A DNA stretch of 64,000 nt from Eubacteriales bacterium (GTDB lineage Bacteria > Bacillota > Clostridia > Oscillospirales > CAG-272): the NCBI GenBank assembly GCA_045653505.1, contig JAZOLZ010000007.1, positions 4,447-68,446 of the forward strand, read 5' to 3'. The notes beneath the pieces were generated by a model that saw only the letters and a list, made by a program, of their open reading frames with translations, was not told the DNA's origin and searched no databases. Below are positions 1 through 8,980 of the stretch, piece by piece (positions within the stretch are counted from its first letter, which is position 1; each line of letters starts with the position of its first letter). Made by a program: the position numbers and the translations under genes.

Positions 1-1052
1 GACGATATAATATTAATCTTGAAACACGTGAACAGTTCCTTGATGAATATCCTGACTTCGTTGCAGGTCTTGCTGTCGGAAAAATCAAAGATAGAAACAA
101 GGCAGAAAGCAAACCAATTAAGATTAGAAAAGGCGTTTTCAACGAAATCAAAGAACTTTGGGAAAAAATCAACCAAAGATATTTGCTCTATTATGATGTG
201 GAACTTAACGATGCACTTGATACGGCAATTTTAGAAATACTTGAAAAGCCGGGCATTTTTAATGGTGTCGTTTTGAGTAGTGAACGAGATATTGTCCGTA
301 GTGATGGCTCGCAAATGTCAACCGAAGCTGGGGTTGGTGTACAATATACCATTTCTCGTCCTATTGCCTATAATGTGTTCCTGAAGCGAATTATGCACAC
401 CACAAATATTCCTCTTGCAGTTATGCACAAGGCTATGTGTGAATACGCAAAAAAACACGGAAATATCAATAGCGACTATATCAATGAAAGCACCGTTGTC
501 GTATTCTGCAAAGAGTTTTATGATTGGAAAATTGCACATTTACAAGGGCATTTCCATTATAAAAAGAGTTCTATCGCCACAAGAGAAACAGCGCTTACCT
601 ATGCGGATGGTACTCCGAGAGATGAAATTGCACAAGGTCGTATCGGCACAAAAATTGTTGCGGGCACGCCAAGTGATAAATACCTGTATGACACCTATGC
701 TTACGATTCTCCTTTGGAAAAGCAAAACATTACCTCGGACATTGAATCCGTAACGGTATATGGCAAAATACCGAGAAGCAGTATTGCTATTCCTACTATT
801 ACGGGTGGAACATACAGCCCCGACTTTATGTATGTTGTGACTCGTACCTCAGGAGAAAAGGAACTCAATGTTATCGTTGAAACAAAGGATGTAGAAAACA
901 AGACGGAGTTGCGTGGCACAGAAGAAGCAAAAATAAAATGTGCCGAATTGTTCTTTAGTATACTCGAACAAGACGGCTACAAAGTATATTTCAAAACCCA
1001 AATCAATAATAAACAAATGAAACAGATTATTGATGAGGTGTTGAGTTGTTAA
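1..1052 (+). CDS. Type III restriction endonuclease Res subunit, C-terminal part (5' end lies outside the window)
   Basis: Frame 3 is open from base 3 (RYNINLETREQF...), so the ORF-track Met at 183 is internal. The C-terminus has a PD-(D/E)xK nuclease signature as in type III Res proteins (YSPDFMYVV ... NVIVETKD ... LRGTEEAKIKCAELFF). Confidence 0.65.
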   Translation, partial: RYNINLETREQFLDEYPDFVAGLAVGKIKDRNKAESKPIKIRKGVFNEIKELWEKINQRYLLYYDVELNDALDTAILEILEKPGIFNGVVLSSERDIVRSDGSQMSTEAGVGVQYTISRPIAYNVFLKRIMHTTNIPLAVMHKAMCEYAKKHGNINSDYINESTVVVFCKEFYDWKIAHLQGHFHYKKSSIATRETALTYADGTPRDEIAQGRIGTKIVAGTPSDKYLYDTYAYDSPLEKQNITSDIESVTVYGKIPRSSIAIPTITGGTYSPDFMYVVTRTSGEKELNVIVETKDVENKTELRGTEEAKIKCAELFFSILEQDGYKVYFKTQINNKQMKQIIDEVLSC

Positions 1053-1069
1053 AAGTTAAGGAGAACAGT

Positions 1070-1231
1070 ATGACAGAAGAACAAGTTAAGTTTTTATGTA
1101 AATGGATTGTTGATAACAGCAATCGTCCATTGAATGAATTAGAAAAAGAACTTATTAAGCAAGCAATCGACAATTCTAAAAATCCGCAAGAGATGGTTGT
1201 ATCCGTTTTGGCACTGTTGAAGAATATGTAA
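1070..1231 (+). CDS. hypothetical small protein (53 aa)
   Basis: Lies in ORF 1046-1231. The ATG at 1070 follows AAGGAGAA. The gene abuts the res stop (1050-1052), suggesting co-transcription. No recognisable motif. Confidence 0.4.
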   Translation: MTEEQVKFLCKWIVDNSNRPLNELEKELIKQAIDNSKNPQEMVVSVLALLKNM

Positions 1232-1285
1232 AAATGAAAAAACGTTCTCCTTCATCGAAATAACAATCGAAGCTATGGAGTAAAA

Positions 1286-1816
1286 ATGGATAATATAACA
1301 TACAAAGCACTGCGTTTATTACAAAACATATTTTCTTTGAAAGATATCAACAAACTTATTCTTCCTCTAAATAACGAGTACAAACCTGAAGAAGAATATA
1401 GTTATTTTTCAACGGAAGATTATTATCCAATAATTTACGAAGAATCAGTTTCGTTGATTATTGAAATAGCCGTTTTGATGCGCAGAGAAGCTGAACAATT
1501 AGATAAGTATAAAGAAAGTCTTAACGCAAAAGTAAAATATTCAAATGTAAGCAAAGATATTGAAAACAGCAAAGATATCTCTTTTTTGAATACACTTTCT
1601 AAAATAGTCCACTCTGACGACATTTTGCTTGAAGTAAAAGATAGACACGGGAATATAGGTTATAGTTACGAGTTGGATAGAGATTGTTATTTTACGGGCT
1701 TTGCTTTATGTAAAGGAACAGACAAAAACAATGTTCCGCAGACAATAAAAATTGATATTAAACGCTTTTGTATCAATGTATTTATGTTTAAGGCAGATAG
1801 ATGTGATATGATGTAA
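1286..1816 (+). CDS. hypothetical protein (176 aa)
   Basis: Clean ORF with GGAG upstream of the ATG, co-oriented between res and the HNH gene. No motif recognised. Confidence 0.5.
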   Translation: MDNITYKALRLLQNIFSLKDINKLILPLNNEYKPEEEYSYFSTEDYYPIIYEESVSLIIEIAVLMRREAEQLDKYKESLNAKVKYSNVSKDIENSKDISFLNTLSKIVHSDDILLEVKDRHGNIGYSYELDRDCYFTGFALCKGTDKNNVPQTIKIDIKRFCINVFMFKADRCDMM

Positions 1817-1827
1817 AGGAGAAAGAA

Positions 1828-2523
1828 ATGCCCTTTAATGAAAAAATAAAAGAAGAAGCAATGATAGCATGTGGGCGACACTGCTGCGTCTGTCATAAAT
1901 TTTGTGGTAACAAAATGGAAGTCCATCATATAACTCCACAAAAAGACGGTGGTGAAGACACGTTTGAAAACGCTATCCCCCTTTGCTTTGAATGCCACGC
2001 AGAAGTGGGGGCTTATAATACTAGTCACCCTAAGGGCGTTAAGTTCTCTAAAACTGAATTAAAGCGTCATCGCGATAATTGGTATAACCGTGTTAAACAA
2101 GGTAATGTGACAAGCGATACAATTCCACCAATGAAATTATTGCGTGAAGAAGGATTTGAAAATACCCCACTCGTTCGCATAACATCGGGAATACAACTAT
2201 TAAATGCTTTGAGTGGGTGTTGTGGAGCTCAACATAATTACGAAGAACCCAAAACAAGAGAAGAAGCATCTATTATCAGTGAATTTCAAAAAGAAATTGA
2301 ATATTTATCGGATGCTGATTCTCTTGTGGAAGAAAGTGAAAGAGTGCTGATAGGGTTTGATTTAAATGACTTAATAACTAAAATGGACGAAAAAGGTTTT
2401 TGGATTTTTACAGGAAGAGAAAATGTAGTTTTAACGGGTGGTGCAATCAGAACTCCTGAAAACTTTCCGCTATTACATATTTACATCTTGAAGAAAGACA
2501 ATATAATAATCAAAAACGATTAA
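1828..2523 (+). CDS. HNH endonuclease domain protein with unrecognised C-terminal domain
   Basis: The N-terminal ~70 aa carry a Cys box plus HNH motif: CGRHCCVCHKFCGNKMEVHHITPQKDGGEDTFENAIPLCFECH. AGGAG lies upstream. The gene starts 12 nt after the previous stop. The C-terminal ~140 aa are unassigned. Confidence 0.8.
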   Translation: MPFNEKIKEEAMIACGRHCCVCHKFCGNKMEVHHITPQKDGGEDTFENAIPLCFECHAEVGAYNTSHPKGVKFSKTELKRHRDNWYNRVKQGNVTSDTIPPMKLLREEGFENTPLVRITSGIQLLNALSGCCGAQHNYEEPKTREEASIISEFQKEIEYLSDADSLVEESERVLIGFDLNDLITKMDEKGFWIFTGRENVVLTGGAIRTPENFPLLHIYILKKDNIIIKND

Positions 2524-2538
2524 ACCATTTACAGAAGT

Positions 2539-2570
2539 AGTCCGGTGTACAAGAAAATGTACACCGGACT
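2539..2570 (+). terminator. hairpin after the HNH gene (terminator-like, weak T tract)
   Basis: agtccggtgtac-aagaaaat-gtacaccggact forms a 12-bp perfect stem 16 nt after the stop. The downstream T run is poor. Confidence 0.4.
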
Positions 2571-2592
2571 ATTGACTTTTACGAAACTTAAA

Positions 2593-2637
2593 ATTGGTAT
2601 AGAGTTGGTATAGTTTTCGGTGTTAAAGTTGGTATTA
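2593..2637 (+). repeat. three direct copies of (A/G)TTGGTAT(A/T), candidate recombinase arm-type sites
   Basis: attggtatag (2593), gttggtatag (2604) and gttggtatta (2628) lie about 120-160 bp upstream of the tRNA-fragment core. Confidence 0.4.
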
Positions 2638-2757
2638 GAAGCGAAAATTACTTGAAGAAACGAACAAAAAGCCTCAAAATAGACGCATTTTAGGGCATAA
2701 AACGCACGAAAATCAAGAAAAATCGCATTTCAACGCCACTTTTACGGTAGAAAAGCA

Positions 2758-2801
2758 CTCCTAAGGGTTAGTTACAGGTTCGATTCCTGTTGCGGGTGCC
2801 A
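2758..2801 (+). other. tRNA 3'-half-like fragment (anticodon loop to CCA), putative att site of an integrated element
   Basis: The sequence ctcctaa-gggtt-agtt-ACAGG-TTCGATT-CCTGT-TGCGGGT-G-CCA has a canonical T arm, a 3' acceptor strand and CCA. No matching 5' acceptor strand or D arm lies upstream. The loop would read as anticodon CCT (Arg), which is tentative. Confidence 0.6.
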
Positions 2802-2803
2802 AT

Positions 2804-2840
2804 AAGAACGTAAATCGAACAAGGTTTACGTTCTTTTTCT
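2804..2840 (+). terminator. rho-independent terminator after the tRNA fragment
   Basis: aagaacgtaaa-tcgaacaagg-tttacgttctt is followed by tttt. Confidence 0.6.
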
Positions 2841-2986
2841 TTGCAAAAAATCAAGGGCGGGACAACAAGCCCCACCCTATAAAGTTTAATATTAAAGTTT
2901 ACAATTCCCGCCCAATAAGTATAAAACAAGCAGATGTTCAGGAACGTGGACGTCTGACCGCTTTTGTAAAAGTTTTTAGTTTTCCG

Positions 2987-4210
2987 TTAAATTGCTGCAA
3001 CCAAACTCTTAACAATTCCCTCAAGAGACGACTCGGAACGTTTTTTAACAATATCCGAAAAGTCCATATCTAATGAAAGAAATGTCAATCCTTTTTGTTT
3101 TCTTAAAACATCTAATCCTTCCTTGCCATACATATATATGAGATTTGAAATATACGTATTTTTTGCTTGCTCACTATGGTAAAGAATCATAATTTCATCC
3201 ATTTTATTAAAGAGTTCCATAATGATATCTTTATCCGTGATGTCAAGAGAGTGTCCCATAACAATAAGTGAAGCAAATTGCTTAGGCTCTTTAATTTCTT
3301 TTAACCAATTCATATAGTCCAAATCGGTATTATATTGAGTTCGCTGAAAATACTTTTTAAATTTCACAAAAGATACGTCTATTGAAGTTACCTCATCGGA
3401 AGAATCAGGATTGATACCAATAATTATTTTATTCTTTATATCCCCGTGTAAATGAAAAATTTCTGAACTTAAATAGAATTGCTCGTAACTACTTGTATAG
3501 TTAAAACTAATAGCTTTGTCAATATGCGTAATTGCTGGACATTTTTTAAGTGTATGCTGTTTGATTTCTAATAAAGTTGGCTCTATAAAAGCTTCTAAAT
3601 ATAATCGTAATATTTTAGCCAAAATGTTTAATTCTTCAAGTAAATGTTCAATAATTTTTTCTTTATTTACAATAATTAACCCCGAACCTAAAGGATATTC
3701 CTTAGCAAAATCATCTATTACACTGTGTGAAGGACCACCAACAATACCCGAATTGTAATCTTTAAGAAAGAAATTAAAATTCTTAATTATGTATGTTTGT
3801 TCTTTATTAACTTCGTGAAAGCGAACTTTAACTGTGGCTTTTTTCAAAAAAGCCTTAAAGGCATCTAAAACATAGGCGATTTCCTTTTCAAAATCTATCC
3901 ATCCAACTCTATTATCAAATATCTTTAATAAATACTGAAACCATAAGTTAGTTTTTGATAAATCAATCAACTGCCCAACAATGCGCTCATCCAACACAGT
4001 GCCTTCATAAACTATTTTATGGGCATTATAACATTCGCCAATGAAAGCATCTTCATTTTGCAACCTGCTATCGCCAAAAACATCAGCAATGGTTTTCATT
4101 TCGGGCTTATAATTTTTAACAAGAAAATCTATTGTATGTAAAAAGTTGTCATATCTCGTTGGTAACTTATGATAAAGGTCAAAACCGTTGCCAAGTAAAA
4201 GTATATTCAT
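2987..4210 (-). CDS. AbiH-family abortive-infection protein
   Basis: The N-terminus MNILLLGNGFDLYHKLPTRYDNFL matches the hallmark start of the AbiH family (xIxGNGFDLxHxLxTxYxDF). The 407-aa length fits. Confidence 0.7.
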   Translation of the reverse strand: MNILLLGNGFDLYHKLPTRYDNFLHTIDFLVKNYKPEMKTIADVFGDSRLQNEDAFIGECYNAHKIVYEGTVLDERIVGQLIDLSKTNLWFQYLLKIFDNRVGWIDFEKEIAYVLDAFKAFLKKATVKVRFHEVNKEQTYIIKNFNFFLKDYNSGIVGGPSHSVIDDFAKEYPLGSGLIIVNKEKIIEHLLEELNILAKILRLYLEAFIEPTLLEIKQHTLKKCPAITHIDKAISFNYTSSYEQFYLSSEIFHLHGDIKNKIIIGINPDSSDEVTSIDVSFVKFKKYFQRTQYNTDLDYMNWLKEIKEPKQFASLIVMGHSLDITDKDIIMELFNKMDEIMILYHSEQAKNTYISNLIYMYGKEGLDVLRKQKGLTFLSLDMDFSDIVKKRSESSLEGIVKSLVAAI

Positions 4211-4275
4211 TCTTTCTCCTTTGTTCTTTTGTAAGTATTTCGGCGAGAGAGATTATTCTTCTATTTGCGAATATG

Positions 4276-4467
4276 CTACCATCTTGAATTGCTTAAAAAG
4301 GTTAAAAGTTCGTTTATATCTTTTGCCCTAGAATAAGCGTCAATAGCGTTAAGCCAATTTGCTTTTTGTTGGTTAGATAAGCTCATATCATTACAAATCA
4401 TTTGTTTTATGATTTCGGTTTTTGCTTTCTCTAATCCTTTTTGAATAATATAATCGTTTAAATTCAT
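4276..4467 (-). CDS. hypothetical small protein (63 aa)
   Basis: ORF lies between the RhuM-family and AbiH-family genes on the same strand. No motif recognised. Confidence 0.4.
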   Translation of the reverse strand: MNLNDYIIQKGLEKAKTEIIKQMICNDMSLSNQQKANWLNAIDAYSRAKDINELLTFLSNSRW

Positions 4468-4523
4468 ATTTGTCCTTTCATTTTATCACAGTAAATATAA
4501 CAATACCCGTCATATTTATAAAA

Positions 4524-5531
4524 TTAATCTTCCTTTTTACCTATGAGTTTTTTTACTTCTTTATCAAAGTCAGAAGTGATTTTTTGTGTCTTATTAAACA
4601 CATCGTATTCATGCGTGGCCTTGCGTTCCGCATCAAGTTTAGACACAGTGCCTTTGCCTTGCAAAATCTTATATTTACGGAATTCCAAAAAGGCGTTGAT
4701 TGCTTCTGCAAATTGTTGCATTGTAAATGTGCGTTCTTCTTCGATTAAATCTTCCACATAGTCAAAGAAGCCAGAAACTGTTCTTTCCAACTTTTTAATT
4801 TGCTTTTCTTCAAGATAATTTTTAGCAATCGTTACGTCAGATTTCAAAATCCTTCCGTCTGGGGAGTGTTTCCAAGTCGTAAGTCCCATATTTTCTTTAG
4901 AACTGTCCGCTTTAGAATAAACGATTTCAGCGGCAGTTTGTCCGGTAATAGCATAGTGGAACTTGTTTTGAACCGTAGCATAAAATTCTTGCGTAATAGT
5001 AGAGTTTTTATCGTAGTCGATACTACACTCAGCAAAAATATCGGTAATTAGTTGCCAAATTCTACGTTCACTTGCACGAATGGAGCGAACTCTTTCCAAA
5101 AGTTCACGGAAATAGTCTTTACCAAAAACCGTTTCGCCTTGTTTTAAGCGTTCGTCATCCAAGACAAAACCTTTTTTAATAAACTCTTTTAATACCTTTG
5201 TTGCCCAAATACGGAATTGTGTAGCACGGTGGGAGTTGACGCGATATCCAACGGAAATAACGGCATCAAGGTTGTAGAATTTGATATTTCTTGATACTTG
5301 ACGAGTGCCTTCAGTTTGAACTACCGAGAAATCCTCGGCAGTTCCTGACTCTTGTAATTCTCCATCTTGATAGATATTCTTTAAATGTAAGGAGATGTTG
5401 TCGGCGGAACAATCAAAAAGTTCTGCCATACCACGTTGGGTAACCCAAATGGTTTCGTCCTTTATCGCAACCTTAACCTTAATATCTTCTTGGTCTATGT
5501 TGTATAAAACAAATTGAAGTTCATTAGCCAT
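4524..5531 (-). CDS. RhuM-family protein
   Basis: TIWVTQRGMAELFDCSADNISLHLKNIYQDGEL ... KFYNLDAVISVGYRVNSHRATQFRIWATKVLKEFIKKGFVLDDERLK is a typical RhuM-family core. Confidence 0.8.
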   Translation of the reverse strand: MANELQFVLYNIDQEDIKVKVAIKDETIWVTQRGMAELFDCSADNISLHLKNIYQDGELQESGTAEDFSVVQTEGTRQVSRNIKFYNLDAVISVGYRVNSHRATQFRIWATKVLKEFIKKGFVLDDERLKQGETVFGKDYFRELLERVRSIRASERRIWQLITDIFAECSIDYDKNSTITQEFYATVQNKFHYAITGQTAAEIVYSKADSSKENMGLTTWKHSPDGRILKSDVTIAKNYLEEKQIKKLERTVSGFFDYVEDLIEEERTFTMQQFAEAINAFLEFRKYKILQGKGTVSKLDAERKATHEYDVFNKTQKITSDFDKEVKKLIGKKED

Positions 5532-5737
5532 TATTCCACCTCCACAATTTCCATAATGTCAGCTATATCGCATTTAAGTGCAGAGCAGATTTTTACAAGC
5601 ATTTCAGTATTAACGTTTTCGTTTTTGCCGAGTTTAGCCATAGTGTTTGTTGAAATGCCTGCGGCGATACGTAATTCTTCTTTCTTCATATCTTTATCTA
5701 TGAGAAGTTTCCATAGTTTTTTGTAGCTTACTGCCAT
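5531..5737 (-). CDS. XRE-type helix-turn-helix transcriptional regulator (68 aa)
   Basis: HTH pattern ELRIAAGISTNTMAKLGKNENVNTEMLVKICSAL. Its stop overlaps the RhuM start by 1 nt (ATGA-type junction at 5531). Confidence 0.8.
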   Translation of the reverse strand: MAVSYKKLWKLLIDKDMKKEELRIAAGISTNTMAKLGKNENVNTEMLVKICSALKCDIADIMEIVEVE

Positions 5738-5927
5738 TTTTACAACTCTCCATATTGTAGTTTATATTATTGTAGCATATATAAAAATAAAAATCAAGGC
5801 ATTCTTTGCGTTCGCCAAGATTTACTTGTTGAACACAGAAAGTATTTTCATTCCCTTTGTCTTTCTCAAAAGTTTCTTAAAACTTGATTTGTTGAGTATA
5901 TGACGTGCGCTTGTCTTTAACAAGTAG

Positions 5928-6158
5928 AGTAAAATCGGCAATTACGATGCTGTTTCCCTAGGGTTAAAAATTGCATATTACAGAAAACTGCGTGGTTTAA
6001 CTCAAGAGCAACTCGCTGAAAAAATAGACAAAAGTGCGGCATTTATAGGTCACGTTGAAGCCCCGAATGTAGACAAAGCAATTTCACTTGACACATTGTT
6101 TGATATTGCCGAGGCTTTAGATATACCCGCACATAAATTTTTCATGTTTGAGGAATAA
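5928..6158 (+). pseudogene. XRE-type HTH gene without a usable start codon (remnant)
   Basis: The open frame reads SKIGNYDAVSLGLKIAYYRKLRGLTQEQLAEKIDKSAAFIGHVEAPNVDKAISLDTLFDIAEALDIPAHKFFMFEE*. A TAG sits immediately upstream at 5925-5927. There is no ATG/GTG/TTG before the HTH. Confidence 0.45.
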
Positions 6159-6164
6159 ATTATC

Positions 6165-6198
6165 CTGAGGTTAGAATTATGCTAACCTCAGTTTTTTA
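6165..6198 (+). terminator. rho-independent terminator
   Basis: ctgaggttag-aattatg-ctaacctcag is followed by tttttt. Confidence 0.7.
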
Positions 6199-6208
6199 TT
6201 GTTTTACC

Positions 6209-6237
6209 TTGCAATCTACTGCGTTTTATGGTATAAT
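6209..6237 (+). promoter_or_regulatory. sigma-A-type promoter for the Fic gene
   Basis: TTGCAA, a 17-nt spacer, then TATAAT with an extended -10 (TGgTATAAT). Confidence 0.5.
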
Positions 6238-6267
6238 ATAGTAGAGTTTATAACTAAAGGAGAAAAT

Positions 6268-6876
6268 ATGGCACTTGAAAACAAACTCGGAATAACCGAT
6301 TCTGCAGAGCTTGCCCGCGAAGAAGAACGAATAAGCAAAACACGAGCAGTAGAACTTTTTGAAACTAATTTTCTTTCTTCTCTTACCCCTGGAACGTTTG
6401 ACGCTCTTTCTAAAATACACGCTTCCCTTTTTTCTGACATATACGATTTTGCGGGTCAGATACGGACAGTGAATATGTCAAAGGGGAATTTTAGATTCGC
6501 TCCGCTTATGTATCTCTCTACCGCACTTGAAAATATCGAAAGAATGCCTCAGAGCACGTTCGATGAAATCGTTGAAAAATACGTTGAAATGAACGTGGCT
6601 CACCCTTTTAGAGAAGGTAACGGACGTGCAACTCGAATTTGGCTTGACCATATATTCAAAAACGAAATTGGAATGGTTGTGGACTGGAGTCTTGTGGATA
6701 AAGAGGATTATCTTCTTGCTATGGAAAGAAGTCCTATTAAAGATATTGAAATAAAACATCTTTTAAAAGGCGCTCTTACCGACAAAGTGAATGACCGACA
6801 GGTGTTTATGAAAGGTATTGACCACAGCTATTACTACGAGGGTTATACTACCTTTAAGGCAGAAAATTTGAAATAA
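6268..6876 (+). CDS. Fic-family protein (AMPylase type), class III architecture
   Basis: Fic motif HPFREGNGRATRIW. The ATG at 6268 follows AAAGGAG. The C-terminus has SYYYEG, which fits the inhibitory (S/T)xxxE(G/N) motif. Length is about 202 aa. Confidence 0.85.
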   Translation: MALENKLGITDSAELAREEERISKTRAVELFETNFLSSLTPGTFDALSKIHASLFSDIYDFAGQIRTVNMSKGNFRFAPLMYLSTALENIERMPQSTFDEIVEKYVEMNVAHPFREGNGRATRIWLDHIFKNEIGMVVDWSLVDKEDYLLAMERSPIKDIEIKHLLKGALTDKVNDRQVFMKGIDHSYYYEGYTTFKAENLK

Positions 6877-6882
6877 GACTTA

Positions 6883-6908
6883 GGCAGTCAGATTGACTGC
6901 CTTTTTTA
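6883..6908 (+). terminator. rho-independent terminator
   Basis: ggcagtc-agatt-gactgcc is followed by tttttt. Confidence 0.7.
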
Positions 6909-7012
6909 TTATCGTAACGTTATACATATTTTTAAGTGTTTGACATTTGTTTTACGGTGTGATATATTTTATTTAAGACCAGAGTTAACATTTTTCTTTA
7001 GGAGGTCAGGTA

Positions 7013-7366
7013 ATGTATCTTGAATACACAAACGCACACTACATTGGAGACGTAAACGCGGACGGGCAAGAACACGGCTAAGGTACATTGTTTTATGACA
7101 ACGGCGAAATATATGATGGTGATTGGCGTGATGGCAAGCGACACGGAAGATGCATTATATCTTATAAGAATGGCAGTAGATACGAAGGTCAGTTTTCAAA
7201 TAACGCTTTCAACGGACGTGGCAGGCTTATCCAGAATGACGGTATTGAGATGGAGGGTAACTGGAGTAGCGCGAGTAATGCTACAGACGTAACCTTCTCA
7301 AGTGGCGGCAAAGTTTCAAAGGGATATATTGAAAACTGGGGTTTCAAGAGAATAGATAATAAATGA
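7013..7366 (+). pseudogene. MORN-repeat protein interrupted by an in-frame TAA
   Basis: The ATG at 7013 follows AGGAGG. The reading MYLEYTNAHYIGDVNADGQEHG is stopped by TAA at 7079-7081. It continues in the same frame as GTLFYDNGEIYDGDWRDGKRHGRCI... with MORN repeats (YxGxWxxGxxxG). The Met at 7088 has no RBS. Confidence 0.55.
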
Positions 7367-7416
7367 AATTCATTATAATGAACTTTGCTTAAAACAATAA
7401 ATATTGCCCTAAAATG

Positions 7417-7446
7417 TAAAAGGCGCTTTACAAAAAGCGCCTTTTT
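7417..7446. terminator. bidirectional terminator at the right edge of the AT-rich island
   Basis: aaaaggcgcttt-acaa-aaagcgcctttt has A and T tracts on both sides. Confidence 0.7.
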
Positions 7447-7447
7447 G

Positions 7448-8980
7448 TTATGCTTTTTTAGTAAGTAGTTTGTGTTTTGCTTTGTCCTTTAATGATTTAT
7501 AAAGGGTTGAGATAACAAGATAAAGGGAGAGAAAAATACAACTGCTAAAGACTATTTTTATTATAAGAAGTCCTACGGTTGTAGACTGGCCGTTTATCCT
7601 AAAAAGGGTATGCGAGGTATAGGCGCTTAGGATAGCGCAGATAAGCGGGATGAGAATACTGCCTATAGGATGTATCTCAAATTTTATCCTCTTTCTTAAC
7701 CTGATAAACGACAGAATAAAGTTATACGCCTCCATAACTATTATTACTACGGCGTAACCCATAATACCCATTTTTGGTAAAAGAATTATGACAAGAATGA
7801 CGGATAGAAGTGAGTCTGTGATGTTTACCCACATTGAATATACGTGCTCGCCTATGCCCTTTAATATCGCATCGGTGACGTGGTCAAGATACATAAGCGG
7901 GATTACAAGTGAAAGGACGGCTATGTAATAACCAACATCGTATGAGGAGTAGATTATATAACCGAGTTCCTCTGCAAAGAGAAATATGAATATAGACACT
8001 GCAATCGCAAACACAAGTGTGGTGTTAAGTGAGCGATCGGCAATACTTTTCATTCTATATTTATTTCCTCTGCCCTCTGCCTCAGCAAACTCGGGTACTA
8101 AAAGTCCCGAAAACGAGGAAAGAGGAGACATAGGATAAAGTATCAGCGGTAGCGCCATACCGTGCAAAATACCGTAAAGGCTGAGAGCCTCACTTGCGCT
8201 TTTGCCACTCTCTGCCACTTTTATCGGAATAAGGGTATGCTCTACGGCTAAGAGTGCTGAGCGTATATTGGCTGAGACGCTTAGGGGTACTGCCATACCG
8301 AATACGTCTTTAAGTTTACTCTTATCAGAGGGCGATTTTTTATAGAGAAGTAACCTATCTATAATAAACTGTAGGAAAAGAAGAAGAGCGCAGAAAATCT
8401 CACCGAGGGTATTGGAAAGACAGAGGTAGATGCAAGCCGTCTCTACGCTTAGTTTTTTTGATACAAAAAGTATGACAAAGACTATACGGAAGGCTTGAGA
8501 GATTACGTGAGTGGCAGAGTTGCGTTTTACCCGCCTTACTCCGACAAAATAGCCCGAGAGGACAGAGGAAATTGCCGCAGGAAAAAGTGAAAAGGCGAGG
8601 ATTATAAGCGGCTTTAATGCTCTTTGGTCTCTTAAAATATGTTCTGATATTACCGGAGAGAGGAATAAAAGAGCGGCGCTTGACGCCAAACTGAAAAGGG
8701 ATGCATAGAAAAAGCCTGCGCGTAAAACCGCTGTACTTGAGCCACTGCCCTCCCCTTCCTTTGCCACAAGGCGCGTCATAGTGAGACTTATACCGCCACC
8801 GGCAAATGTCAGTGCAAAATTGTAGACGGTCATTATTACGGTAAAAAGCCCTATTCCCTCTGCCCCGACTGCCTGCGTTACAAAGGCATTAAAGAAAAGA
8901 TTTACCGTGCGCATTCCTATTGCTACTGAGGATAACAGAATGCCGTTTTCAAAAAATCGCTGTTTATTTGACTTTACCAT
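7448..8980 (-). CDS. MOP-superfamily flippase (polysaccharide biosynthesis / SpoVB-like)
   Basis: A 510-aa polytopic membrane protein. The N-terminus (GILLSSVAIGMRTVNLFFNAFVTQAVGAEGIGLF) is typical of SpoVB/MurJ-like proteins. Confidence 0.65.
   Translation of the reverse strand: MVKSNKQRFFENGILLSSVAIGMRTVNLFFNAFVTQAVGAEGIGLFTVIMTVYNFALTFAGGGISLTMTRLVAKEGEGSGSSTAVLRAGFFYASLFSLASSAALLFLSPVISEHILRDQRALKPLIILAFSLFPAAISSVLSGYFVGVRRVKRNSATHVISQAFRIVFVILFVSKKLSVETACIYLCLSNTLGEIFCALLLFLQFIIDRLLLYKKSPSDKSKLKDVFGMAVPLSVSANIRSALLAVEHTLIPIKVAESGKSASEALSLYGILHGMALPLILYPMSPLSSFSGLLVPEFAEAEGRGNKYRMKSIADRSLNTTLVFAIAVSIFIFLFAEELGYIIYSSYDVGYYIAVLSLVIPLMYLDHVTDAILKGIGEHVYSMWVNITDSLLSVILVIILLPKMGIMGYAVVIIVMEAYNFILSFIRLRKRIKFEIHPIGSILIPLICAILSAYTSHTLFRINGQSTTVGLLIIKIVFSSCIFLSLYLVISTLYKSLKDKAKHKLLTKKA

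Follow-up and report, generated by a model that had tools for sequence, protein, structure and literature searches.

The window analysed here, a 64,000-nucleotide (nt) stretch of the forward strand of contig JAZOLZ010000007.1 from a Eubacteriales bacterium of the CAG-272 lineage (assembly GCA_045653505.1), opens within a Type III restriction gene, res. Behind res, at positions 1046-2523, lie three small genes encoding proteins of 53, 176 and 231 amino acids (aa), the last with an HNH nuclease module at its N terminus. On the same contig (locus L012; loci retrieved for comparison carry L numbers throughout) the full-length Res is an intact protein of 985 aa and a 688-aa Mod is encoded 5' of the window, so that the host has an intact Type III mod-res pair. 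We consider it probable that 1046-2523 forms the 3' end, mosaic in make-up, of an AT-rich island peculiar to this strain, with mod-res as its core and independent single-gene cassettes behind it, and that the three genes do not make up one system. The features at this end of the window are as follows.

3-1052, forward strand: C-terminal 349 aa of Res (PADLOC REase_III, E = 7.8e-61; NCBIfam PRK15483, E = 6e-99; Pfam RE_endonuc, E = 9e-27)
1070-1231, forward strand: 53-aa gene, from the list of open reading frames (ORFs), with its own Shine-Dalgarno (SD) sequence, AAGGAG, at 1057
1286-1816, forward strand: 176-aa gene, from the ORF list, with its own SD sequence, GGAG, at 1276
1828-2523, forward strand: 231-aa HNH gene, from the ORF list, with its own SD sequence, AAGGAG, at 1817
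1828-2112, forward strand: HNH (His-Me finger) nuclease module, residues 1-95 (PF01844, E = 3e-10)
2113-2523, forward strand: C-terminal domain of the HNH protein, residues ~96-231, family specific, with the predicted order beta-beta-alpha-beta-alpha-alpha-beta-beta
2536-2573, forward strand: terminator-like hairpin with a 16-bp stem (-26.6 kcal/mol, z = -6.8, 0 of 200 shuffles as stable)
2590-2757, forward strand: right-end island segment, 87-91% identical to the sequence directly after AbiV in L111-115 and shared with islands of the order DUF4379 protein, 53-aa gene, AbiV
2758-2801, forward strand: 3' half of tRNA-Arg(CCT), the native tRNA of the genus, which marks the island border

A preliminary description of the stretch had reported three co-oriented, tightly packed genes behind the Type III res, each with its own SD sequence, and a hairpin after only the last of them. 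The ORFs and their spacing bear this out: 17 nt separate res from the 53-aa gene, 54 nt the 53-aa gene from the 176-aa gene and 11 nt the 176-aa gene from the HNH gene. No terminator-like site was found within 1046-2523, and the hairpin downstream is probably the terminator that closes the HNH cassette. The 53-aa gene has an alternative start, TTG at 1046, that would give a 61-aa product; because all 24 homologous clusters measure 53-55 aa, the ATG at 1070 is the true start. The three are genuine coding genes, and purifying selection acts on each: the pairwise ratio of nonsynonymous to synonymous substitution (dN/dS) is 0.17 in the 53-aa gene, 0.07-0.13 in the 176-aa gene and 0.06-0.16 in the HNH gene. 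An anti-SD hairpin in the 54-nt spacer, which would have implied translational coupling of the 53-aa and 176-aa genes, was considered and dropped, the folding being no better than that of shuffled sequences (z = -0.48 in the window, +1.89 in L111). Searches of Pfam, NCBIfam, PADLOC and PHROGs returned no family above threshold for the 53-aa protein, the 176-aa protein or the C-terminal ~135 aa of the HNH protein. The earlier view that the proteins are uncharacterised, with only the N-terminal HNH part recognisable, is thus upheld; PF01844 matches residues 19-59 only, above the gathering score, and PDB and Foldseek searches also matched the HNH part alone.

Comparison of window positions 1-3000 with all retrieved loci by blastn revealed where each gene begins and ends as a unit of homology. 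The 53-aa cassette (1058-1288), which starts at its own ribosome-binding site (RBS), takes in the 54-nt spacer and ends at the ATG of the gene that follows, is 89.6% identical in nucleotide sequence to L111-116. The 176-aa cassette (1270-1816), from RBS to stop codon, is 85% identical to L008-10, and the HNH cassette (1814-2555/2581), from RBS to hairpin, matches L013-15, L031, L032, L001-4 and L034 at 77-90% nucleotide identity amid unrelated contexts and with sharp edges. The homology ends abruptly at the cassette edges, which makes the region a string of cassettes that can be exchanged. Exchange at the RBS, the start codon and the terminator can be followed here at base-pair resolution, which informs how defence islands are assembled.

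Co-occurrence was assessed by tblastn of the three proteins against the loci retrieved earlier and from gene maps for the later ones; ORFs in the relatives' loci were called by a simple longest-ORF rule. Each gene recurs elsewhere without the others at 85-92% identity. The 53-aa gene stands without the other two in ~25 loci (92% identity in L111-116), the 176-aa gene without the HNH gene at 87.5% identity in L008-10 and 51% in L028, and the HNH gene without the other two at 91% identity in L013, L031 and L032 and in >10 further architectures. The pair of 53-aa and 176-aa genes was found only in the window's own genome, by tblastn for the earlier loci and by neighbour maps for the later 53-aa loci. 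All three genes occur variously with Type I, II or IV restriction-modification (R-M), BREX or Hachiman systems, or without R-M. The preliminary description had envisaged a self-contained three-gene module; this does not survive the comparison, as the genes do not co-occur in other genomes. Two other groupings were rejected as well: a toxin-antitoxin pair of the 53-aa and 176-aa proteins, for lack of a conserved pairing, and extra subunits of the Type III enzyme, for lack of constant co-occurrence with mod and res.

The composition and the right border of the region point to an island. The GC content is 32-36% in window positions 1001-3000 versus 40-46% in the core genes beyond. The tRNA half at 2758-2801 has the same sequence as the 3' half of the tRNA in L111, and it agrees with the congeners' tRNA at 96-98% identity. 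ARAGORN detected no complete tRNA in the window; it located a complete tRNA-Arg(CCT) at L012/contig positions 61-135, 5' of mod, and this differs in sequence from the native tRNA in both halves. All that the native fragment and the complete tRNA have in common is the anticodon-loop octamer CTCCTAAG at the junction, and the island seems to have brought in a replacement tRNA. The rest of the stretch, window positions 1-2757, is absent from 12 of 12 congeners, and no full-length HNH protein of the window's type (class A, defined below) was found in 150 other genomes of the host's family. The low GC content, the tRNA half and the absence from congeners and family genomes together indicate that the island is strain specific and horizontally acquired. 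The final 212 nt before the border (2590-2801) recur directly after AbiV in L111-115. In the model that we favour, recombination would have strung the three independent cassettes behind res at this tRNA-Arg(CCT) island.

The 53-aa protein represents an unnamed small-protein family tied to R-M operons. No helix-turn-helix (HTH) was detected in it, and a PDB profile search gave no relative. Its gene follows Type III Res in the window, where the 176-aa gene comes next, and in L131, where a TIR gene does. In Type I operons the order is HsdM, HsdS, 55 aa, DUF2971/PDC-S31 (L128-129); HsdS, 54 aa, DUF2188, HsdR (L133, L141); HsdS, 53 aa, HsdR, with no effector behind (L134, L142); or HsdM, an intervening gene, HsdS, 55 aa, 335 aa, HsdR (L143). 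It also lies between a DUF4379 protein and AbiV (L111-116, L122-126, L137), and behind a 228-aa protein and facing AbiU (L117-120). Thus hsdS or res is immediately 5' of the gene in 7 of ~10 interpretable architectures, often with overlapping stop and start codons; here and below, such context counts tally architecture types and not phylogenetically independent events. The gene on the 3' side is often, not always, an abortive-infection (Abi)-type effector. From these arrangements a regulatory or adaptor role for the 53-aa protein may be proposed, and the family would mark a slot after hsdS or res in which AbiV/HEPN, TIR and DUF2971/PDC-S31 effectors lodge. The family could in this way explain how such slots are organised or regulated.

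The relatives between hsdS and hsdR lie at L133 1498-1662, L134 1474-1635 (reverse strand), L141 913-1080, L142 1807-1968 and L143 5995-6162, and a targeted literature search found no description of this small gene inside Type I operons. Like RptR and the C-proteins, the 53-aa protein is small and associated with Type I and other R-M operons (PMC12255303). RptR (79 aa) and the C-proteins, however, carry an HTH and are encoded upstream of the genes they control, unlike the 53-aa gene, which is downstream of hsdS or res; an identification with RptR (PMC12255303) was rejected because position and size differ.

The 176-aa protein is a very rare orphan. It has 21 homologs in a set of 5.8 billion proteins, and an exhaustive profile search of 1.84 billion representatives gave 21 matches, three of them spurious: the long matches P0177, P0185 and P0186 are repeat proteins (zinc fingers, fn3) and were discarded. 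An AlphaFold2 (AF2) model, confident for a new predicted fold (mean predicted local distance difference test score [pLDDT], 82.4; predicted template modelling score [pTM], 0.79), has a long N-terminal helical hairpin and a C-terminal beta-sheet domain. Foldseek found no match to the model in the PDB with a probability >0.11 and no convincing one in BFVD (best probability 0.51, TM 0.17), and a PDB profile search with the family gave nothing significant. Assignment to the PD-(D/E)xK nucleases through D97 ... E/Q116-x-K118 was rejected, since E116 is not conserved and the fold lends no support.

In the window the 176-aa gene fills the slot that AbiV, TIR or DUF2971 proteins hold elsewhere behind the 53-aa gene. 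In L008 a homologue stands in the order Type IIG, PDC-S31, 176-aa homologue, PDC-S19 (DUF3644), with no HNH gene, and in L028 a homologue is near RloB. These neighbours argue, by position, for a role in defence, and the 176-aa protein can be put forward as a candidate stand-alone defence of the Abi type. It resembles AbiV (HEPN, Lactococcus) in occupying the same slot: the 53-aa gene ahead of AbiV is 92% identical to the window's, and the 54-nt spacer recurs there; unlike AbiV and other HEPN proteins (Rx4-6H, PF18728), it has no Pfam or PADLOC match, and its model is alpha/beta and not all-alpha. Neither BLAST similarity to the AbiV of L111 nor fold similarity to AbiV/HEPN was found. Within L008, the chain at 903-7578 starts with a Type IIG-like enzyme of 1347 aa (ResIII + Eco57I); its first three frames overlap and the last gene follows after 33 nt. 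Single-gene candidates are lined up behind a restriction enzyme there also.

The HNH protein has an intact catalytic site. H33, H34, N48 and H57, the HNH catalytic set, are invariant in 32 sequences, as are three of the CxxC...CxxC zinc ligands (C19, C53 and C56), C22 being nearly so; the site is that of the McrA/IscB-type subgroup, and the module carries a conserved HPKG...HRDxWY extension. The AF2 model (pLDDT 85.7) consists of the HNH fold with a helical extension to residue ~95, a flexible linker and a compact C-terminal domain with pLDDT mostly above 90. It aligns with the HNH domains of McrA, IscB and Cas9, and the nearest solved structures, for the HNH part only, are IscB, EcoKMcrA, ScoMcrA, a group II intron maturase and Cas-HNH. 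The best Foldseek match in the PDB is 6ghc (E = 7e-3, TMq 0.27), over the HNH part alone. Residues 100-231 have no sequence or fold match in the PDB, and no Pfam, NCBIfam or PADLOC match extends beyond residues 1-96. A weak NCBIfam match to HlpB was followed up and led only to generic HNH literature.

The two halves of the HNH protein differ in distribution and in rate of change. The family comprises >360 full-length relatives at 39-92% identity, mostly from uncultured gut Clostridia. It is essentially absent from the plasmids searched and gave one weak partial match among 50,697 phage records. When 185,579 species genomes were scanned, the N-terminal module turned up in many phyla with 50-65% identity, attached there to at least six other unrelated classes of C-terminal region, including STAND NTPase and ORF6C-like tails. 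A hidden Markov model of the window's own C-terminal domain finds only 19 loci, all in Clostridia, which define class A. Within class A the median identity is 66% for the N-terminal module versus 36% for the C-terminal domain, which therefore evolves faster. Effector-sensor defence proteins usually pair a conserved effector with a partner domain that evolves fast and can be exchanged. The HNH protein is accordingly described here as probably an effector nuclease, by prediction, with a family-specific C-terminal sensor. Its C-terminal domain would hold or direct the nuclease until a phage-derived signal or a feature of foreign DNA is met, after which the HNH module would cut DNA; the defence function, the sensor role and the nature of the trigger are proposed on the strength of this pattern and of genomic context. 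Other carriers of the N-terminal module include proteins of ~505-535 aa (for example, L063, L072 and L091) and of 276-291 aa (L055-L065). Two class-A copies (L044 1693-2409 and L045 1581-2327) look damaged or mis-started and may be pseudogenes: in L044 the tblastn match starts 5' of the first usable start codon, and in L045 the called frame is shorter and starts later.

Class-A HNH genes recur beside restriction systems of very different kinds. The gene follows Dcm, a BpuJI-like restriction enzyme and a second Dcm in one architecture; Vsr, Dcm and HpaII in another; GmrSD and a 74-aa gene, itself unrelated to the 53-aa gene, in L013, L031 and L032; HamA and HamB (Hachiman) in a fourth; an HaeIII M::R fusion in a fifth; and a methylase, a PstI-like restriction enzyme and a 103-aa gene in a sixth. 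It is embedded between Type III Mod and Res, in overlapping or abutting frames, in L036, L046 and L047; in the BREX locus L043 it follows BrxC and PglX and precedes, at some remove, PglZ; and in a further architecture it comes after MTase_II and a 71-aa gene and before a methyltransferase and ResIII. In the window, the HNH and 53-aa genes are appended behind the Type III res and not embedded. Restriction-type neighbours are present in 10-11 of ~13 class-A architecture types, and only L035 and L040 lack them.

As a control, 77 genes lying directly beside HNH genes with other C-terminal classes were inspected; they are mostly housekeeping genes, with ~3 R-M parts. On this evidence the linkage to restriction-type systems is specific to class A, which is found inside or behind such systems far more often than its sister classes. 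The gene 5' of HNH varies by locus, being a 74-aa, a 60-71-aa or a 103-aa gene, DUF2992 or an R-M gene. These small upstream proteins are mutually unrelated and unrelated to the 53-aa protein, and the HNH protein thus has no conserved small partner. The 53-aa protein and the class-A HNH protein are, then, unnamed families that recur inside or just behind restriction systems. With its intact nuclease site and a new, confidently folded C-terminal domain, the class-A HNH protein is a good single-gene defence candidate absent from PADLOC. Several class-A loci lie on mobilisable elements with Mob_Pre, a relaxase or an integrase. In L021 (6001-8507) the Hachiman and class-A HNH genes are followed by PDC-M50A (142 aa, apparently membrane associated), a TIR protein and a ThsB-like protein, small defence candidates packed closely in a row on an element that bears two integrases.

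Arrangements of this kind have precedents. A gene embedded in an R-M, BREX or Hma system is as a rule a defence in its own right, a principle termed "guilt by embedding" (bioRxiv 10.1101/2024.01.29.577857); HNH nucleases have been catalogued among the auxiliary effectors and nucleases of BREX loci (PMC12839542); and the gap between hsdS and hsdR is a hotspot for defence insertions (PMC12255303). The three genes share with known embedded or appended defences (PrrC in EcoprrI, BrxU in BREX, HEC-01..09, and DarTG2 between hsdS and hsdR) their placement in restriction-type operons, and, like them, are single genes, co-oriented, often translationally coupled, exchangeable and carried on mobile islands (bioRxiv 10.1101/2024.01.29.577857; PMC12839542; PMC12255303). 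Unlike them, the three proteins match no PADLOC 2.0.0 model, HEC and PDC included, and contain no ABC ATPase, TOPRIM, GmrSD or HEPN domain. The HNH protein also recalls the Avs/STAND effector-sensor proteins in joining an N-terminal nuclease module to a variable C-terminal part (L108 and at least five other classes); L108 8001-10532 even encodes an 843-aa fusion of HNH and STAND NTPase, its N-terminal module 55% identical. Unlike Avs/STAND proteins, however, the window's HNH protein has no NTPase, and its C-terminal domain spans only ~135 aa. At ~230 aa it is of a size with the HNH protein of Septu. The preliminary description had set Septu aside, rightly so: no PtuA ATPase gene adjoins HNH in ~13 architecture types, and PtuB matches at only E = 0.0097.

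Several observations weigh against the reading of 1046-2523 as a row of independent defence cassettes. PADLOC 2.0.0, embedded-gene candidates included, has no model for any of the three families, and the labels sensor and effector derive from position and analogy, the C-terminal domain of the HNH protein and the 176-aa protein having no known fold. Mobilisable elements of gut Clostridia carry R-M more often than any other cargo, and adjacency to R-M could in part reflect the small cargo regions of such elements. The 53-aa gene is not simply the leader of an effector cassette, because L134 and L142 have no effector behind it. Finally, there is one other locus with both the 176-aa and the HNH gene, L033, from a sheep-colon metagenome-assembled genome. 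That all three genes, or at least the 176-aa and HNH pair, act together as one functional module would accord with this adjacency and, in the window, with the single strand, the gaps of 54 and 11 nt and the one terminator after the last gene. Yet L033 matches window positions 1277-2801 as one contiguous 1.5-kb block of 90% nucleotide identity, and because the match is a single stretch it stems from recent common ancestry and does not count as a second, independent case. The occurrence of each gene without the others, the unequal family sizes (>360 relatives for HNH versus ~20 for the 176-aa protein) and the want of a constant partner beside HNH across loci make a joint module very unlikely. 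The false lead of a new three-gene system is thereby removed, and three separate leads take its place.

Three further explanations concern the HNH protein and its relation to the neighbouring systems. Its C-terminal domain might read a phage-type base modification, so that the protein, like a Type IV enzyme, complements R-M, BREX or Hachiman against phages with hypermodified DNA. The top PADLOC match of the protein is mREase_IV (E = 9e-6), EcoKMcrA and ScoMcrA are among the best solved relatives of the HNH part, and the layout of a zinc-stabilised HNH nuclease plus an uncharacterised second domain recalls the McrA-type enzymes EcoKMcrA, ScoMcrA, TagI and VcaM4I; moreover, BrxU/GmrSD Type IV enzymes occur inside BREX loci (PMC12839542; bioRxiv 10.1101/2024.01.29.577857). 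These matches, however, span only the generic HNH motif, for which IscB scores equally well, and the domain order is opposite to that of McrA, TagI and VcaM4I, the window's HNH being N-terminal. Searches of Pfam, NCBIfam, PADLOC and the PDB found no SRA, EVE/PUA, winged-helix (wH), RAMA, McrA N-terminal, DUF3427 or other reader domain in the protein. Its partners, furthermore, are m5C, m6A/m4C and unmethylating systems alike, and its closest relatives sit beside GmrSD, itself a Type IV enzyme. We regard a base-modification reader as unlikely. A selfish, homing-type endonuclease cassette that spreads beside restriction genes without benefit to the host would account for the sharp edges from RBS to terminator and the 77-90% nucleotide identity amid unrelated contexts, and many homing enzymes belong to the HNH superfamily, as PHROGs matches illustrate. 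But the gene is absent from phages, introns and inteins and has no common insertion target; NUMOD, IENR or AP2-type DNA-binding modules were not found with Pfam; purifying selection acts over the whole HNH length, down to 39% identity; and HNH frames are coupled to the flanking mod and res. A purely selfish element appears highly improbable.

The placement inside restriction operons also brings to mind PrrC. The HNH protein and the effectors behind the 53-aa gene might stay silent while the restriction complex works and fire once an anti-restriction factor of a phage disables it, with the 53-aa protein as an adaptor linking effectors to Type I and III enzymes. Three loci have the class-A gene between mod and res and another has it within BREX, and the 53-aa gene is directly 3' of hsdS or res and is then followed by suicide-type AbiV, TIR or DUF2971; PrrC in EcoprrI is the precedent (reviewed in bioRxiv 10.1101/2024.01.29.577857). 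In their embedding, the relatives do resemble the PrrC/RloC guards (HNH in L036, L046, L047 and L043, the 53-aa gene between hsdS and hsdR). The architecture of ABC ATPase plus anticodon nuclease is another matter, as neither domain was found. The partners of HNH (Type II, III and IV R-M, BREX and Hachiman) are too diverse for one specific protein contact, HNH stands in L035 and L040 without a restriction system nearby, and the 53-aa gene occurs without an effector (L134, L142) and behind non-R-M genes (L111, L117). Such a guard mechanism is, in our judgement, quite unlikely. We are similarly doubtful of a more general form of this idea, in which the 53-aa protein would dock swappable suicide effectors (AbiV, TIR, DUF2971 or the 176-aa protein) on Type I and III enzymes and the class-A HNH protein would fire when its neighbour (R-M, BREX or Hachiman) is engaged or disabled, both being dedicated restriction companions; were it true, the two would form a general PrrC-like second layer built from swappable parts. 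The balance of evidence leaves independent cassettes as the reading that we prefer.

The preliminary description had likened the layout of the three genes to that of recently found defence modules; a role in defence is plausible from context, given the Type III R-M system, AbiH and RhuM/PDC-S05, and it is the notion of a module that has to be given up. At the same tRNA-Arg(CCT) site, related genomes (L111 2856-6510; L112-116 and L122-126) have a smaller island, on either side of which the tRNA 3' end is repeated directly over 50 nt. Its cargo is a DUF4379 zinc-ribbon protein of 700 aa, the 53-aa gene and AbiV, and gene calling gave no integrase in the retrieved stretch. Beyond the border in the window, positions 2987-5737 of the reverse strand encode AbiH (Pfam, E = 7.5e-34) and a RhuM-family protein that matches PADLOC PDC-S05 (E = 4.7e-155), and the defence cargo therefore continues on the other strand.

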